Shown here: piece by piece, positions 11,701 through 50,896 of the stretch | Layout of the letters: the number at the start of each line of letters is the position of its first letter | How positions within the stretch are numbered: position 1 is the stretch's first letter | Source: Gammaproteobacteria bacterium | Lineage (GTDB): Bacteria; Pseudomonadota; Gammaproteobacteria; Ga0077536 | Direction of reading: 5' to 3' | Length of the DNA stretch: 64,000 nt | Assembly: GCA_963662545.2 (NCBI GenBank) | Contig: CAXXLL010000003.1 | Span: forward strand, 2,186,644 to 2,250,643 | Made by a program: the position numbers and the translations under genes | The notes under the pieces: generated by a model | The model's database searches: none | Seen by the model: the letters and a program-made list of their open reading frames with translations, nothing else | Told to the model about the DNA's origin: nothing

Positions 11701-13215
11701 ATGGAAGGCGGGAGGATGTACACCGTGGACCTATATCTGCGCGTTCGGCTGGCCTGCCATGTTGATGGTCTGAGCCAGCGAGAGGCGGCAAGTCGGTTTG
11801 GCATTGCGCGCGAGACGGTGAGGAAGATGCTGCGGCATTCGGAACCGCCGGGATATCGGCGACGCCAGCCACCGAAACGCCCGAAACGGGCCCCCTTCAC
11901 GGATATCATCGACCGTATTCTGGAGGAGGACCGAACGGTTCACCGTAAGCAGCACCACACGGCGAAGCGTATATTCGAGCGCCTTCGCGACGAACATGGC
12001 TTCACGGGCAAAGAGACCATCGTGAAGGATTACGTTCGGGAACGGCGCCTTCGTCGGCGTGAGATGTTTGTGCCGTTGTCACATCCTCCGGGCCATGCTC
12101 AAGCGGACTTTGGCGAGGCGGATGCGATCATCGCCGGCGTCAAGTATCGGGCGCATTTTTTCGTCATGACACTTCCCCACAGCGATGCCTGCTTCGTTGC
12201 GGCCTACCCGTCAGCGACGACGGAGGCCTGGCTGGACGGGCACAACAGAACCTTCGCCTTCTTCGGCGGTGTTCCCCGATCGATTCTCTACGACAACGAC
12301 AAGTGCCTGGTGTCGCGCATCTTGCCGGATGGCACGCGACAACGAACGCGAGCGTTCAGCGGACTGCAGTCCCATTACCTCTTCGAGGACCGTTACGGCC
12401 GTCCCGGCAAGGGCAACGACAAAGGCAATGTTGAGGGGGTGGTTGGCTACGCCCGACGGAACTTCATGACGCCGCTTCCCCGGTTCGCGAGCTGGGACGC
12501 CTTCAACGCTTACCTGGAGGAACAATGCCGCAAACGGCAAGACGACGTCCTGCGCGGCCACCGCGAGAGCATCGGCGAACGGTTTGTGCGTGACCGCGAA
12601 GCGTTGAAGAGGCCACTGCCGGCACCGTTCGACGCGTGCGACAAGCAGGGCACGCGGGTCAACTCGCTGTCCCTGGTGCGCTACCGGACGAATGACTATT
12701 CCGTGCCCGTCGCCTACGGCCATCAGGAAGTCTGGATCCGTGGCTATGTCCACGAGGTGGTTATCGGTTGCGGCGCCGGGATCATTGCCCGACACCCCCG
12801 TTCCTACGACCGGGAAGATAGGGTCTTCGATCCGATCCACTACCTGCCTTTGCTGGAGCACAAGATCGGTGCCCTGGATCAGGCCGCGCCGCTAGCCGGA
12901 TGGGAACTGCCTGATGCCTTCCCAACCCTGCGCCGTCTCCTGGAGGCGCGCATGGGCAAGGCCGGCAAGCGGGAATACGTCCAGGTCCTTCGGCTTCTGG
13001 AGACCTTCGATCTCGAGGTGCTTCACGGCGCGGTGAAGGACGCCCTGCGCCTGGGCGCGATCGGCTACGACGCCGTCAAACACCTTGTGCTGTGCCGTAT
13101 CGAGCGACGCCCGCCCAAACTCGACCTGGATATCTATCCCTACCTGCCTCGGGCCAACGTGGCGACCACGGCCGCCGCCAGTTATATGAGCTTGTTGGGT
13201 GGAGGCGCGTCATGA
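11701..13215 (+). CDS. istA: IS21 transposase IstA
   Basis: 504 aa with HTH LSQREAASRFGIARETVRKML and a DDE core. The true start may be the Met at 11716. Confidence 0.9.
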   Translation: MEGGRMYTVDLYLRVRLACHVDGLSQREAASRFGIARETVRKMLRHSEPPGYRRRQPPKRPKRAPFTDIIDRILEEDRTVHRKQHHTAKRIFERLRDEHGFTGKETIVKDYVRERRLRRREMFVPLSHPPGHAQADFGEADAIIAGVKYRAHFFVMTLPHSDACFVAAYPSATTEAWLDGHNRTFAFFGGVPRSILYDNDKCLVSRILPDGTRQRTRAFSGLQSHYLFEDRYGRPGKGNDKGNVEGVVGYARRNFMTPLPRFASWDAFNAYLEEQCRKRQDDVLRGHRESIGERFVRDREALKRPLPAPFDACDKQGTRVNSLSLVRYRTNDYSVPVAYGHQEVWIRGYVHEVVIGCGAGIIARHPRSYDREDRVFDPIHYLPLLEHKIGALDQAAPLAGWELPDAFPTLRRLLEARMGKAGKREYVQVLRLLETFDLEVLHGAVKDALRLGAIGYDAVKHLVLCRIERRPPKLDLDIYPYLPRANVATTAAASYMSLLGGGAS

Positions 13216-15631: not shown

Positions 15632-16104
15632 TCCACTCGCTATGCACGACTGAATCTTACGAGTTTGGACGAAAGGCAAGATTTGCGAGTATAAGAAGAA
15701 CAAAGCGTGTTTTTGTCTGTTTATCGAGTATGCGAGTTTAAATCGGGTGGTAGATTGGTTCGCACTGACTGCGCTTGGGGGTCGTATAAGCGAAAGAAGG
15801 CGAGCAAGTCCTGTCTTTAATGAGTGGAAACGGTCCCCCCGCGTCGTCGAATTAGCCTTGAGACCCAGCGCGTCCGCGACCGTCGCTAGCGAGGCCTGGC
15901 ATCCATGTGTTGAGGGGATTTTGGGGCTCATTCGTTGAGCCCGGGGAGCATCAATTGCGGCGGCGCCCGGGCGGCATGTGCGTTGGCGCTTGGGGGGCTG
16001 GTGGTTTGACGATCGAGATGATCCAGGATGCGCTGGATGACGGTGGGGTCTTCGATGCAGGCGATGATCTTCACCGCACCGCCACACACCTCGCAGGTTT
16101 CATC

Positions 16105-16176
16105 GGGCACATCTCTGTGCCCGCCCGCTTCGCGGCAGTCTGCGCCTGTGCAAATCGGCTTTCCTGCCGATTTGTC
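16105..16176 (-). repeat. Stacked-hairpin micro-element, copy F
   Basis: The minus strand reads GAC aaatcggc-aggaaa-gccgattt GCA ... ccgc-gaa-gcgg ... gggcac-agagat-gtgccc. It lies inside the IS91 reading frame between HIDI and DETC. Confidence 0.7.
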
Positions 16177-16381
16177 AATGTCGATGTGGCCTACAGGGAT
16201 GTAGGTCAGGGGCGTGAGCAGGACGCGGAAGCTTTGAACACGCGTTTCAAGCGGCGTGCCCACGCCAAGGTCGCGCGCTGTTGGGTGGCTGTTTTATCGG
16301 TCTGCAGATCGGGTGATTTTCGACCACGCCGGGCGGGTGTGACGGTGGCGCGGTGGGCGCTGTTCGGAGCGAACATGCCGT

Positions 16382-16453
16382 GACAAATTTATCCGGAATA
16401 AATTTGGACGACCGAAGGTCGCCCGAAGGGTGAGGAACAGGGATGTTCCTCAT
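16382..16453 (+). repeat. Stacked-hairpin micro-element, copy A
   Basis: GAC aaatttat-ccgga-ataaattt GGA cgacc-gaa-ggtcg ccc-gaa-ggg tg gaggaac-agggat-gttcctc. It splits the IS91 frame between NLIRF and GMFAPNS. Confidence 0.75.
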
Positions 16454-16511
16454 CAAAGCGAATGAGATTGACGCGGGGTTTGGGAATGAGCGCTGCGAGA
16501 CGGGCGATGAA

Positions 16512-16585
16512 GTACTCCGGGCATCCTGCCCTGCGCCCTTCGGGCCAGCCTACGGCTGTTCAAAATCGCTCCCGGCGATTTTGTC
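16512..16585 (-). repeat. Stacked-hairpin micro-element, copy B
   Basis: The minus strand reads aaaatcgc-cggga-gcgatttt GAA cagcc-gta-ggctg gccc-gaa-gggc gggca-gga-tgccc. It is inserted between the IS91 codons for PLD and FIARL. Confidence 0.7.
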
Positions 16586-17178
16586 TAACGGCACGAAGAA
16601 CATATGCGTCGTGCCATCGCGGTAAGGGGTTTTGAGTTGGTACCGGACGAAGCCGTTTGCAGTCAGCGAGAGGCGTTGTTCAGAAATGGCGGGGCGGTGA
16701 TGTAACGGGCAAGGCGTTCGAGCTTTCTGCGCTTCTCCGGTTCGACGGCGACGCCGGCGTGCAGGGAGAAACCCGCGGCCTTGGCCAGGTGGTCGCTGGT
16801 GCGCGTGCTATCGTCGCGAGCCGGTAAGGTCTGCAGCGTGAAGGCTTTGTGACCCTCGCGGGGCCCGACAGCGATACGGATCATGCCCCGTTCCTGCAAA
16901 CGTCGGCACAATTCGTAGGGCTCTTGCCAGTTCTGATTTTGAATATGCGAGACGATCAAGGCGCCATCGAGCGCGACGGCGTTGGCGATTATTTCCCGGT
17001 GACCCAGGGTCCAGTTCAACGGCAAGGACTCGGTCGGGCCAAAGCGAGTATGAGCACCAAACATGCGATCGTACTTCTTGGCGAGTTTCTGTCGTCATCG
17101 TGACCGTGAACGGCGGGAATCTGTTCTATACTCGTTGCGTGTCGGGTTGATGTCTTTCGAGTACGCAGGAGGAAACGC

Positions 17179-26549: not shown

Positions 26550-27010
26550 GGTCGATTCCTCCTGCTTCAGCACCACTGATGCCGGAATAAACGCGTTTAA
26601 ATCATCCCAAGTATAAGGCGGATAACCGCCCTATTTCGAGCTTTCGGAGTTGACGCGTTTTGGTCGCGGGTCTGGATTTCGTGGTTTCGTGGCGGTCGTG
26701 GACGGGGTTGCGCGGGGCCGGTGTGTCGATGGCCTGGGTCAAGTGCGTCTAGCGGGGTGTGGTCACGAGCGGGCCCGTGACCGTCGCCGATGAGGGCTGT
26801 GATCTTGCTTGAGATCGGGGATGGCATCGAGCCTCAGTCGTTGAGGCCCGGCAGCGCTGCTTGTGGGGGTGCTCGGGCGGAAGGAATGCCGGACCACGTC
26901 GGCTGTGCAGCGCGCTGGTCAAGATGCTCGAGGATGCGTTGGATGACGGCGGGGTCTTCGATGCAGGCGATGATCTTAACGTTGCCGCCGCAGGCATCAC
27001 AGGTTTCATC

Positions 27011-27157
27011 GGGCACCTCCCTGTGCCCGCCCGCTTCGCGGCAATCTGCGACTGTGCACCAGTTTGCCGGGAGCAAACTGGAACAGCTTTAGCTGGCCTG
27101 CGCAGCAGGTAGGCTACATGGATGTAGCCTATAAATCGGTTTTCCTGCCGATTTGTC
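27011..27157 (-). repeat. Stacked-hairpin micro-element, copy F' (orthologous to 16105-16176) carrying a nested copy
   Basis: Same flanking hairpins as copy F (gggcac-ctccct-gtgccc ... aaatcgg-ttttcc-tgccgattt) but 75 bp longer. Confidence 0.7.
27059..27133 (+). repeat. Stacked-hairpin micro-element, nested copy N
   Basis: cagtttgc-cggga-gcaaactg GAA cagc-ttta-gctg cctgc-gca-gcagg taggctac-atggat-gtagccta. It is absent from the otherwise collinear site in remnant 1. Confidence 0.7.
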
Positions 27158-27415
27158 GATGTCGATGTGGCCTACAGGGATGTAGGTCGGGGGCGTGAGC
27201 AGGACGCGGGAGCTTTGAATACGTGCTTCAAGCGCCTGGCTTAAGGCTCGCCGCTCTTGCGCATCCCTGCGCCCGCGGCATTAGTGCATCCCTGCACGTC
27301 ATGGCGGCGCGGCACTGGCCAGGGGTTTTCTCGGTGTCGGGGCCGGGTGTTTTGCGGCCGCGGCGGGCGGGGGTGACCGCCGCGCGGTGTGGACTGTTCG
27401 GTGCGAACACGCCGT

Positions 27416-27488
27416 GACAAATTTATCCGGAATAAATTTGGACGACCGAAGGTCGCCCGAAGGGTGAGGAACAGGGATGTTCCTCATC
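27416..27488 (+). repeat. Stacked-hairpin micro-element, copy C (same site and sequence as copy A)
   Basis: Identical architecture and near-identical sequence to 16382-16453, at the same position in the IS91 frame. Confidence 0.75.
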
Positions 27489-27546
27489 AAAGCGGATGAG
27501 ATTGACACGGGGTTTGGGAATGAGTGCGGCGAGGAGGGCCATGACT

Positions 27547-27617
27547 AATCGGCAGGACTGCCGATTTGCACGACCGAAGGTCGCCCTGTCCGGGGTGGGG
27601 TACACGGACGTACCCCA
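27547..27617 (+). repeat. Stacked-hairpin micro-element, copy D
   Basis: aatcggca-ggac-tgccgatt TGCA cgacc-gaa-ggtcg ccc..ggg ggggtac-acggac-gtacccc. It is inserted after the PLDF codons of IS91, 3 nt from the site of copy B and in opposite orientation. Confidence 0.7.
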
Positions 27618-27925
27618 TGAAATCGAGCGGTTCGAAGAACACGTGGGTGGTGCCGTCCAGGTCAAGGGGTTTTGAGCGCGTATCGCACCAAGCCCTGTGA
27701 GATGAGTGACAGGCGCTGCTCGGAGAGCGCGGGTCGGGTGATGGTGCGGCATAGTCGTTCGAGTTTCTTTCGTTCCCAGGGCTCGGTGCCGACGCCGGCG
27801 GCTACAAATCCCCTGAATAGCTGTTCGCCGGCAAGCCGGCTCCTACGGTGCGATAGGCATGCAACTGCGGCACCGTAAGAGCCGGCTCGCCGGCGAACCA
27901 CGCCGCCTCAGCGCACCGCACCTAG

Positions 27926-29531
27926 CCTGCATATTGCATGAGTGAATAAATTTAGGCGGTTTTGTTGGCAAGTTGGCCGTTCAATCGATTGTCATCGGCG
28001 ATTGCAGGGGCTGGTCTACTCATGCCCGAGTGGCAAGGACGTTACCGCAGTAATTTTTGCTGAGAAGTCGTTTTTCAGGCAAAGGTATCCATGCGTGTTT
28101 TCAACACGCGAATGCTTTAATCGTTTCGGGTTTATCCGGGTGCGAGTCGATTCGCGGCCAGGAAGTAGAGTTCCTTGTAAGGACAACCGCTGGCCAAAAG
28201 GAAACGGATACGGCGCGTATTTTTCAGGATCACGGCACCGATCCTGAACAGCTTTAAACGGATGGTACCGACATAAGCGTTGGCCAGCTCGGTACCTTTC
28301 AATGCGATCCGCCGGATCGCCTCGATCAGGGTGTAGGCCAGCGAGGCGAGTAACAATCGGAACTGATTCGGCCACCAGTGTTGACAGGAGGTGCGATCGC
28401 CGAACATATCCAGTTGGTTTTCCTTGATGCGGTTTTCCATGTCACCGCGGGCACAGTAAAGCTTGTCGTACAGCTGCTTGGCATCGCCTTCAAGGTTGGT
28501 CACCACATAACGCGGATTGACACCGTGCTGCGAGTGCTCGATCTTGGCGATCACGCGACGCGCACCATCCCAGCTGCGGGCAGCGTATTGGAAATCGGTG
28601 AACCAGCGCACTTTATGTCCGGTGGCGGCAAAGCACGCCGCGGCCTCATCCTGCAAGGATGCCGTGAGCCGGTTCAAGCACTTATTCTTGGCCAGTCCGA
28701 TGATGTAGCCGACCTCGTGATGATCACACCAGCGCAGCATCTTCCAGCGGCAAAAGCCACCGTCACCGCGGAAGATGATCCGCACCTTTGGCCACACTTG
28801 CCGCAGTCTTTTGACCAACAACGACAAAATCGCCCAGCTGTGTTTGGCACCATCGATGTTGCTCGGACGAAGATAGCTCACCAGCAACTGATGACCGCAG
28901 AATACATACAGTGGCAGAAAACAGTAGTGCCGGTAATAGCCGTGAAAGAAGCGACCGTCCTGTTCACCGTGTACCGGGTCATCGGTCGCATCGAAGTCCA
29001 GTATCAACTTTTTCGGTGCACGCTTGAACGAGGCGATGAACTGATCGAGCAGCACTTCGTGCAACCGCCAGGCAGTCTCCCGATCAGCCCGGTTCTCAAA
29101 ACGGCATAAGGTCGATGCACTGGCCAACCATTGATCACGTTCCACTGCTGTCTGCAGTGCCACGTCTTGACGCAATCCGTCATGGTCGTTCAGGTCTTCA
29201 TAGCCCAGCGCAATCGCATACAGGCGTTGCCGAACCAGACCCGGCACATCATGATCGCAACTCGCCTGACGGCGGGGATCCGACAGCGCCCGCGCAATCG
29301 AATCACTCAAACCCGTTAACCGATCTGCCTGCCGCAATAGCAACACGCCACCATCGGAAGTGATGTCGCCACCGTCGAATCTGGCTTCGACAATGCGGCG
29401 ATTAACACGTGGAAATTCGAACGATCTCTGGTAACATTTCGTCACGGCGGTCCCTTCCTTTATTCGTTGTTAGCACTTTGAATTATATAGGAAACTACAG
29501 GACCGCCGTTTCTATTGGTGCAATTTGCAGG
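27926..29531 (-). mobile_element. IS1380-family insertion sequence
   Basis: Terminal IRs are CCTGCATATTGCA (27926) and the reverse complement of CCTGCAAATTGCA (ending 29531). CTAG lies on both flanks (4-bp duplication or part of the IR). It carries a single 437-aa transposase. Confidence 0.8.
28132..29445 (-). CDS. IS1380-family DDE transposase
   Basis: 437 aa. DITSDGGVLLLRQADR, LILDFDATDDPVHGEQ, FHGYYRHYCFLPLY and YCARGDMENRIKE are hallmark IS1380 motifs. Confidence 0.9.
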   Translation of the reverse strand: MTKCYQRSFEFPRVNRRIVEARFDGGDITSDGGVLLLRQADRLTGLSDSIARALSDPRRQASCDHDVPGLVRQRLYAIALGYEDLNDHDGLRQDVALQTAVERDQWLASASTLCRFENRADRETAWRLHEVLLDQFIASFKRAPKKLILDFDATDDPVHGEQDGRFFHGYYRHYCFLPLYVFCGHQLLVSYLRPSNIDGAKHSWAILSLLVKRLRQVWPKVRIIFRGDGGFCRWKMLRWCDHHEVGYIIGLAKNKCLNRLTASLQDEAAACFAATGHKVRWFTDFQYAARSWDGARRVIAKIEHSQHGVNPRYVVTNLEGDAKQLYDKLYCARGDMENRIKENQLDMFGDRTSCQHWWPNQFRLLLASLAYTLIEAIRRIALKGTELANAYVGTIRLKLFRIGAVILKNTRRIRFLLASGCPYKELYFLAANRLAPG

Positions 29532-29855
29532 CTAGCCGGAGGGGAACTGCCTGATGCCTTCCCAACCCTGCGCCGGCTCCTGGAGGCGCGCATGGGCAAG
29601 GCCGGCAAGCGGGAATACGTCCAGGTCCTTCGGCTTCTGGAGACCTTCGATCGCGAGGTGCTTCACGGCGCGGTGAAGGACGCCCTGCGTCTGGGCGCGA
29701 TCGGCTACGACGCCGTCAAACACCTTGTGCTGTGCCGTATCGAGCGACGCCCGCCCAAACTCGACCTGGATATCTATCCCTACCTGCCTCGGGCCAACGT
29801 GGCGACCACGGCCGCCGCCAGTTATATGAGCTTGTTGGGTGGAGGCGCGTCATGA
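29532..29855 (+). pseudogene. istA: istA 3' fragment
   Basis: Encodes only the last about 107 residues (ELPDAFPTLRRLLEARMGKAGKREY...). Confidence 0.85.
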
Positions 29856-50732: not shown

Positions 50733-50825
50733 GACGCCTCATCAAGTGCGCTGTCCCGCAATAAAACTTCATAATTCGCTGGTCCTCGCACCGCGCTGCG
50801 GCGTTACTCGTCGTTGCCGTATTGC

Positions 50826-50896
50826 GGATGCCGTCCATGGCATCCACCCTTCGGGCCCGCCTTCGGCGGTCCAAATACGTTCCCGACGAATTTGTC
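50826..50896 (-). repeat. Stacked-hairpin micro-element, copy E, in the sucB-lpdA spacer
   Basis: The minus strand reads GAC aaattcgt-cggga-acgtattt GGA ccgcc-gaa-ggcgg gccc-gaa-gggt ggatgcc-atggac-ggcatcc. Confidence 0.75.

Follow-up and report, generated by a model that had tools for sequence, protein, structure and literature searches.

The window, by which we mean the whole 64-kb stretch of DNA that was analyzed, carries two C-terminal fragments of an IS91/ISCR2-like transposase gene, both on the minus strand. A tblastn search with the ISVsa3 transposase placed remnant 1 at 15937-16878 and remnant 2 at 26837-27799, where they match ISVsa3 residues ~270-497 and ~308-497, respectively. An intact transposase protein (..RLKRVFNIDIETCNGCGG..) was used as comparison, and relative to it both remnants are broken by several short hairpin-rich inserts. 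E3, E5 (47 bp), and E2 (72 bp) are common to both remnants, E4 is present only in remnant 1, and E1 (nested in E3), E6 (53 bp), and E7 are present only in remnant 2. Perfect hairpins of at least 7 bp number 13 in the ~1.2 kb of remnants compared to about one per 1-2 kb elsewhere. Two IS21-family copies (istA/istB) that are 99% identical lie at 12891-13190 and 29531-29830 and flank a 16.6-kb segment containing both IS91 remnants together with amidase, amidohydrolase, and MetE-like genes. This segment may be a composite-transposon-like unit.

MAFFT was used to align 15900-16400 with 26800-27400. The two remnants are collinear, and the alignment has one clean 75-column gap. Remnant 2 has exactly 75 extra bp (27058/9-27132/3), and the bases that flank them are contiguous in remnant 1 (16151|16152). 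The empty site in remnant 1 reads ...CCTGTGC|AAATCGG... (16145-16158). The filled site in remnant 2 reads ...ACTGTGC, then ACCAGTTTGCC...GTAGCCTAT, then AAATCGG..., and the full extra sequence between the bases that meet at the remnant 1 junction is ACCAGTTTGCCGGGAGCAAACTGGAACAGCTTTAGCTGGCCTGCGCAGCAGGTAGGCTACATGGATGTAGCCTAT. This extra sequence is E1, a 75-bp element read on the plus strand, and its boundary is uncertain by 1 nt (an A), which gives 27058-27132 or equally 27059-27133. No direct repeat flanks E1 in the remnant alignment apart from this 1-nt ambiguity. The sequences flanking the indel are 86% identical between the remnants on the left (140 nt) and 93% identical on the right (102 nt). 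A search of the window for further copies of the 75 bp gave none at ≤3 mismatches and none by short-word BLAST.

The filled and empty states were compared in independent assemblies. Remnant 2 with its insert occurs in three of them (L002, L004, and L005) as a single ungapped match of 99.7 to 99.9% identity, and remnant 1 without the insert occurs in five (L007-L011). E1 is no assembly artefact because independent assemblies reproduce both states. A related strain is represented by two assemblies (L001 and L003) in which the region equivalent to ~26580-28100 of the window lacks both remnant 2 and the adjoining IS entirely; the zinc-ribbon gene there has other neighbors, namely luciferase-like, isochorismatase, and hydantoinase genes.

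E1 folds as four perfect hairpins on either strand. These are P1 (CCAGTTTGC-cggga-GCAAACTGG), P2a (CAGC-ttta-GCTG), P2b (CCTGC-gca-GCAGG), and P3 (TAGGCTACA-tgga-TGTAGCCTA), and all 27 stem pairs are perfect. The fold calculated with DNA parameters has an energy of -24.7 kcal/mol compared to -11.1 ± 2.2 kcal/mol for shuffled sequences (z = -6.3), and 0 of 200 shuffles were as good.

E1 and E3 belong to a real family, named 4HE here, that is characterized by four hairpins, conserved loops, and covarying stems. E1, E2, E3, E4, and E7 align to one common plan, which is typically 72-76 bp long (recorded lengths are 72, 73, 75, 76, and 81 nt). The 5′ end is an A followed by P1 (9-bp stem, arms CAAAT..ATTTG, loop CGGGA or AGGAnn). 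P2a (5 bp, GAA loop) and P2b (CCC-GNA-GGG) form the middle, with GNA triloops in the consensus of both. The 3′ end is P3, a variable stem of 8-10 bp with the core CA-GGGA-TG, followed by AT(G/C). A covariance model built from 15 copies recovers all pattern-found loci at 60-94 bits and also found E8, an extra copy in the window. A model made from other copies matches E1 end to end (positions 1-74, 62.9 bits, E ~1e-14). Across 41 copies, 94.2% of stem cells are paired compared to 76.7% in shuffled and 30-40% in slid controls, changes on both sides are seen at 20 of the 26 stem pairs, and G-U pairs make up ~1.4% of cells.

E3 is the host of E1. Its uninterrupted form in remnant 1 is a 75-bp copy on the minus strand (16101-16175; model match of 77.4 bits), with the empty E1 site at 16151/16152, and codon reconstruction shows that it was inserted in frame between the transposase codons ..NIDI|ETC... 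In remnant 2, E3 (minus strand) is split into two pieces. The first in plus-strand order (27007-27057) is the 3′ part in the orientation of E3 itself and holds P3 (CGGGCAC..GTGCCCG), P2b, P2a, and the outermost G of P1. The second (27133-27156) holds P1 (AAATCGG-ttttcctg-CCGATTT) and the terminal base. The covariance model misjoins the 27007-27057 piece of E3 to the P1 of E1 (27007-27082, 45 bits). The exact 75-column gap, the fold, and the end-to-end model match bear out the original prediction that the remnants are collinear paralogues and that the 75 bp in remnant 2 are a discrete unit with the four-hairpin layout of the host. The indel ends are the ends of the 4HE family, and the junctions coincide with the element boundaries as had been proposed. 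A host copy is present in remnant 1, with its coordinates corrected from 16105-16176 to the 75 bp given above on the minus strand. The insertion is at hairpin 1 as predicted, but one base pair inside the foot of P1 and not merely beside it.

The window holds eight 4HE copies in 64 kb, and seven of them are inside the two transposase remnants. E2 is a plus-strand copy of 72 bp at 16383-16454 in remnant 1 (81.2 bits; between the codons ..NLIRF|HG..), has a covariance-model match on the plus strand at 27417-27488 in remnant 2, and corresponds to a 24-codon gap in the tblastn alignment. E4 (16513-16584, minus strand, 66.7 bits) separates the codons ..PLD|FIARL.. in remnant 1, and E7 (27544-27619, plus strand, 80.9 bits) lies at the codons F|I in remnant 2. 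The E7 and E4 sites are 3 bp apart and the orientations are opposite; therefore, E7 is an event independent of E4. E8 (50823-50895, minus strand, 61.8 bits) is intergenic between sucB and lpdA and is the sole 4HE copy of the window outside the IS91 remnants. The counterpart of E8 in a related strain (ERZ28669063:ctg99325; L055 2843-2907) has an extra 65 bp located exactly in the P2b GAA triloop (CCCG^AAGGG, 1-nt ambiguity). These 65 bp are hairpin-poor, have no second copy among the sequences examined, and could reflect either misassembly or the insertion of something different, again at the G^AA motif.

Two shorter inserts also interrupt the remnants. E5 is a plus-strand insert of 47 bp between the codons RVFK|IDI (16186-16232 in remnant 1 and 27167-27213 in remnant 2) that consists of the hairpin GGCCTACA-ggga-TGTAGGTC and a tail. 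E6 (27242-27294, minus strand, 53 bp) is the second gap in the remnant alignment, contains two CA-GGGA-TG mini-hairpins, and stands in place of the Trp codon in ..LAWARRLK... The short inserts at all three positions share the CA-GGGA-TG mini-hairpins and a tail, GCGnGAGC. E5 and E6 may be 4HE fragments or a second small family. The motif CAGGGATG occurs 8 times in the window compared to 2.4 expected, and 6 of the 8 occurrences are inside the remnants.

Sequence collections were searched for other members of the family. About 45 4HE copies were found in Gammaproteobacteria MAGs, in JGI metagenomes, and on a Serratia proteamaculans replicon. A 22-nt pattern common to E2 and E7 identified 11 loci in 185,579 species genomes, all of them Gammaproteobacteria MAGs from taxa that include Lysobacterales, Lysobacter, Nitrococcus, and Azotimanducaceae, and a 19-nt version identified 27 loci in JGI metagenomes. 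The patterns of both 4HE subfamilies had 0 matches in viral contigs. In a 7.3-Gb plasmid collection, the canonical consensus had 0 matches and the E1 query had one, in Serratia. A six-frame peptide query of 5.8 billion proteins gave 36 candidates and one match, which shows rarity only. Outside IS91 genes, each 5-10-kb locus among the others (~300 kb in total) has about one copy. The closest relative of E1 is in S. proteamaculans AGR_Sm1a (NZ_MT039221.1, 203218-203290, 66.9 bits). It is intergenic, follows a tRNA cluster, has the CGGGA loop and the ...CAT|AA end of E1, and differs in P1 by one compensated pair. In the metagenome copy L039b, 18 nt of P2a (GAACAGCTTTAGCTGGCC) are identical to E1. 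E4 and L019b belong to the same CGGGA-loop subfamily as E1, and L019b and L039b are the subfamily relatives of E4. Rfam gave no match at the gathering score in the window and only chance-level matches at E ≤ 10 in 26900-27700, and a search of the literature with sequence-based and concept-based terms found no description of 4HE. Apparently, 4HE is a rare, undescribed family of a known general kind, the miniature hairpin mobile DNA, and within that kind it is distinctive in its architecture and target habits.

Filled and empty sites were used to define the insertion target. The hsdM genes of two loci (L046 and L059) carry a 75-bp copy that is missing from a close homologue (L058), where the site reads GGCCG^AATC. 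Neither this pair nor the E1/E3 pair has a target duplication, and the 1-nt A ambiguity of E1 recurs in the hsdM pair. In intact IS91-like relatives, no insert breaks the E3 site (ATCG^AAACC) or the E7 site (CAATG^AAATCC), the intact relative L060 likewise has an uninterrupted E2 site (CCGTG^AAAGCG), and G^AA is present at all three. In a list of 37 copies that includes some orthologous copies, the last base of the left flank is G in 31 and the first two bases of the right flank are AA in 26. The orientation of 4HE is constant relative to this asymmetric target. These results show that 4HE inserts at N^AA, usually G^AA, without duplication. The hsdM pair and the uninterrupted IS91-like sites independently confirm 4HE mobility and agree with the original reading of the E1 indel as evidence of movement.

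E1 is very likely a discrete mobile-element insertion and probably represents a non-autonomous, hairpin-built 4HE copy that inserted whole and without target duplication into the older copy E3. The direction of the event, insertion at E1, would follow from the two-paralogue comparison taken together with the family consensus. E3 had inserted earlier into the IS91/ISCR-like transposase gene, and E1 probably later into E3.

The original prediction also suggested that the element targets its own structure. An element that recognized a resident hairpin and preferred the foot of P1 would account for the location of E1 inside the outermost base pair of the E3 P1. The copies are clustered, with three to four per remnant, two located 70 nt apart in L019, and two located 20 nt apart in L026. 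The P1 arms read CAAAT on both strands, so each copy offers a near-cognate N^AAAT site. However, the survey of ~45 copies gave E1 in E3 as the one 4HE nested in another, and the copies cluster in IS91 genes and not within other copies. No resident 4HE is present at the targets in hsdM, Fic, tRNA T-loops, and transposase codons. The E1 site (GTGC^AAATCGG) has the right half AA(A)TCG, which is nearly equal to that of the independent E7 site (CATG^AAATCGA), a target that is not a 4HE. A short sequence target thus explains the position of E1 and self-recognition is not needed, which makes structural self-targeting improbable. As for the checks proposed in the original prediction, neither filled/empty pair has an A or TA duplication at its junction, and E1 shows no presence/absence polymorphism, remnant 2 always having E1 and remnant 1 always lacking it in the relatives that carry them.

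IS91-family transposase genes hold 8 of the 38 loci found with neutral patterns (7 distinct) at no fewer than five different codons, and the window adds four more independent events in such genes. A second alternative is that 4HE is a non-autonomous IS91/ISCR derivative moved by the Y2 HUH transposase close to its own gene, and this enrichment is in its favor. IS91 enzymes act on single-stranded, hairpin-bearing ends. On the other hand, two intact close relatives (L060 and L061) and ISVsa3 are without 4HE, with no model match at E < 0.01, and the end hairpin of the intact relatives (GGGGTTTATCCTTCCTAAACCCC) is unlike P1 or P3. IS91 ends were rejected as the source of 4HE based on this dissimilarity and the lack of a model match. 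The IS91 target, GTTC/CTTG, differs from the NNNG left flanks of 4HE, and many copies are in loci without an IS91 element within the 5-10 kb examined. Descent from IS91 is thus doubtful, and the enrichment may instead reflect either the tolerance of dead genes for insertions or a bias toward DNA that passes through a single-stranded state.

The other copies occupy several kinds of site. One class is located in the T-loops (GGTTCG^AATCC) of partial tRNA/tmRNA copies shortly downstream of intact genes. At L023 2880-2990, L050 3433-3530, L042 1470-1580, L044 281-341, and L032 3332-3390, the host is a second, partial tRNA/tmRNA 3′ end that follows the intact gene and its terminator at a distance of 70-370 nt. 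These T-loop copies often have a hairpin (GAACCC-GNA-GGGTTC) as their left flank, and the arrangement may represent leftover attachment sites or be part of the insertion process. L016 3480-3894 consists of tandem ~210-nt units that are tRNA-like with the T-loop interrupted by a diverged 4HE (26-31 bits), and ARAGORN called no tRNA in these units. Some copies are intergenic and adjoin housekeeping genes.

Copies of exactly 75 nt are also carried in frame and in the sense direction by intact HsdM, Fic, and SLFN_AlbA_2/HATPase_c_4 genes. Each adds 25 residues, D(K/Q)SAGxPI(C/W)TTEGRP..., to HsdM, Fic, or the SLFN-type ATPase, and scans of these proteins and of a 111-aa ORF that also carries the insert found no Pfam family over the added residues. 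The range of element lengths led to the rejection of a strict in-frame rule, and copies that are not a multiple of 3 shift the transposase reading frame in the cases examined (L018, E4, and E7). At five loci (L047 714-788, L051 8148-8222, L034 3484-3558, L036 122-196, and L052 9630-9704), a 4HE copy is inside a larger repeat of ~180-250 nt that adjoins unrelated genes (aldolase/ABC transporter, acyl-CoA dehydrogenase, and 2-oxoacid dehydrogenase E2). The position of 4HE within the dispersed repeat is constant in all five, so 4HE apparently hitch-hiked on another repeated element. At L026 1-147, one 4HE bridges transposase codons ~70 (..LEHGF) and ~177 (QRFGSAL..), and a second one, cut by the contig end, is 20 nt upstream. 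The junction looks like recombination between two 4HE copies with the deletion of ~100 codons.

The E1 indel could also have arisen by precise excision, with E1 nested in E3 in a common ancestor and lost seamlessly from remnant 1. This single event accounts for the two-remnant data as well as insertion does, neither remnant has an outgroup, and IS200/IS605 single-strand transposons do excise seamlessly. Against excision, all of the other ~40 copies have a contiguous P1-P2a junction, which makes the nested state of E3 the exception. Remnant 1 gained E4, and remnant 2 gained E7 and E6, after the two had diverged, and the presence of such lineage-specific copies in each indicates that insertion was going on. 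The 27 perfect stem pairs of E1 are consistent with youth. Taken together, these observations make excision quite unlikely.

The conserved loops and covariation could alternatively belong to a structured RNA, such as a riboregulator, a processing site, or a mini-intron, that spread through an RNA intermediate or has an RNA function. Strong covariation, GNRA-like loops (GGGA and GAGA), and intact host reading frames are compatible with an RNA. Yet G-U pairs are nearly absent, and with so few of them the pairing holds on both strands, which favors DNA hairpins over RNA. GNA triloops are more typical of DNA hairpins, and GNA and GNRA-like loops are unusually stable in single-stranded DNA. Both orientations occur relative to host genes, the host reading frame is broken by copies that contain stop codons or are 72, 73, or 76 nt long, and no Rfam family matches. 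An RNA is thus a very remote prospect. Quasi-palindromes can arise through template switching, but a local origin of the hairpins by switching or slippage without a mobile element is already refuted by homologous copies at unrelated loci and in unrelated taxa that have the same hairpin order and loops and reproducible ends.

The 4HE insertions were compared with known systems of mobile hairpin DNA. REP and REPIN sequences are short, palindromic, non-autonomous DNAs that lack terminal inverted repeats and target duplications, are believed to transpose in a folded single-stranded form, have stems that vary between families, and are common in Gammaproteobacteria (PMC8266576, PMC3116915). 4HE resembles them as a short, hairpin-built, non-autonomous DNA of Gammaproteobacteria that likewise has no terminal inverted repeats and no duplication. 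A REP is a 20-50-nt palindrome after a conserved tetranucleotide, usually GTAG (PMC8266576), whereas the 41-copy 4HE alignment has no conserved GTAG, which occurs only in some variable P3 stems (E1 and E5). In place of one palindrome or an inverted doublet, 4HE has four hairpins that differ from one another and always follow the same order, and a Pfam analysis of the neighbors of ~20 loci showed no RAYT gene nearby. REP and REPIN sequences number hundreds to thousands per genome and are mostly intergenic, with inverted doublets (BIME/REPIN) a frequent arrangement. In the window and the ~300 kb of other loci, 4HE has a low copy number, many copies in genes, and no inverted doublets.

IS200/IS605 elements have end hairpins instead of inverted repeats and enter a short asymmetric target in a fixed orientation without duplicating it (PMC8266576). 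4HE is like these elements and like PATEs in having P1 and P3 at its ends, no terminal inverted repeats, a fixed orientation at its target, and no target duplication. In contrast to IS200/IS605, the 4HE hairpins leave just 1 nt free at the left end and 2-3 nt at the right end, and there is no obvious guide tetranucleotide. P1 starts 1 nt from the left end, which leaves no room for an IS608-style guide sequence before the hairpin. An IS200/IS605-type element inserts 3′ of a specific tetra- or pentanucleotide that abuts its left end and is selected by the guide sequence; in the left flank of 4HE, only the last base (G) is conserved, and the stronger signal is the AA on the right, which places these conserved target bases 3′ of the insertion point and not 5′. 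No autonomous partner with ends matching 4HE was found in the sequences examined, and PATEs are not known to be as small as the 75-bp 4HE. A classical MITE differs from 4HE, whose ends (ACAAAT.../...CAT(G/C)) are not inverted repeats and have no target-site duplication.

Rickettsia palindromic elements insert in frame in protein-coding genes, and the gene stays open (PMC10969869). The in-frame carriage of 4HE inside protein-coding genes is similar, but 4HE is half the ~150-bp size of those elements, is unrelated in sequence, has a different phylum-level host range, and includes many copies whose length is not divisible by 3 and disrupts the reading frame. Elhai et al. in 2008 reportedly described cyanobacterial small dispersed repeats that are 21-27-nt single hairpins nested in each other or in other mobile elements, and their mobility is said to have been inferred from filled/empty comparisons. 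4HE resembles these repeats in nesting and in the type of evidence but has four hairpins, and the resemblance serves as a lead only. Integron attC sites retain structure while their sequence varies, and their recombination takes place in a folded single strand, at a fixed G^NN point and without duplication. 4HE shares the conserved structure with variable sequence and the G-side target without duplication. Unlike attC, the 4HE consensus is without RYYYAAC/GTTRRRY cores, the hairpins are four separate ones and not one long imperfect one, the surrounding genes form no cassette arrays, and no integron integrase adjoins the copies.

Returning to 4HE as an inserting DNA element, movement would occur in trans by a putative enzyme that reads folded single-stranded hairpins beside its cleavage sites. 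By analogy with IS200/IS605 and REP/RAYT, the leading candidate is an HUH/Y1-type single-strand transposase, although we would not give it an even chance. Less likely is a recombinase that works on folded single strands in the manner seen at integron attC. No transposase or recombinase, and no Y1 enzyme, was found by Pfam among the neighboring genes of ~20 loci, and none was evident among the window ORFs, which were read by eye. At L060 1-1411, two tyrosine-recombinase (Phage_integrase) genes precede the intact relative of the remnant transposase. Copies would survive mainly in dispensable or horizontally moving DNA, such as IS91 genes, tRNA 3′-end fragments, restriction/defense genes, and other repeats. 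This bias would arise if insertions are tolerated there, if the DNA is often single-stranded there, or both.

A more speculative reading, which we consider rather unlikely, is that 4HE is a hyperparasite of mobile DNA moved by the putative folded-strand-reading enzyme and favoring DNA with a single-stranded stage. Its targets may include rolling-circle IS91/ISCR elements, transferring islands with tRNA attachment sites, and restriction/defense loci. IS91 transposases may be knocked out by such insertions, and in-frame copies may be tolerable in other proteins.

REP, REPIN, and Rickettsia palindromic element hairpin repeats are abundant, their movement is poorly understood, and clean filled/empty pairs are rare. 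4HE supplies several such pairs at base-pair resolution, a defined G^AA target, and a compact, covarying four-hairpin architecture. It also provides in-frame carriage in real proteins outside Rickettsia and recurs in IS91 transposase genes and tRNA T-loops. The presence of a copy in the cultivable S. proteamaculans makes mobility and the responsible enzyme directly testable. If a new enzyme or a real preference for rolling-circle transposons proves to be true, 4HE would extend the parasitism among bacterial mobile elements by a further level.
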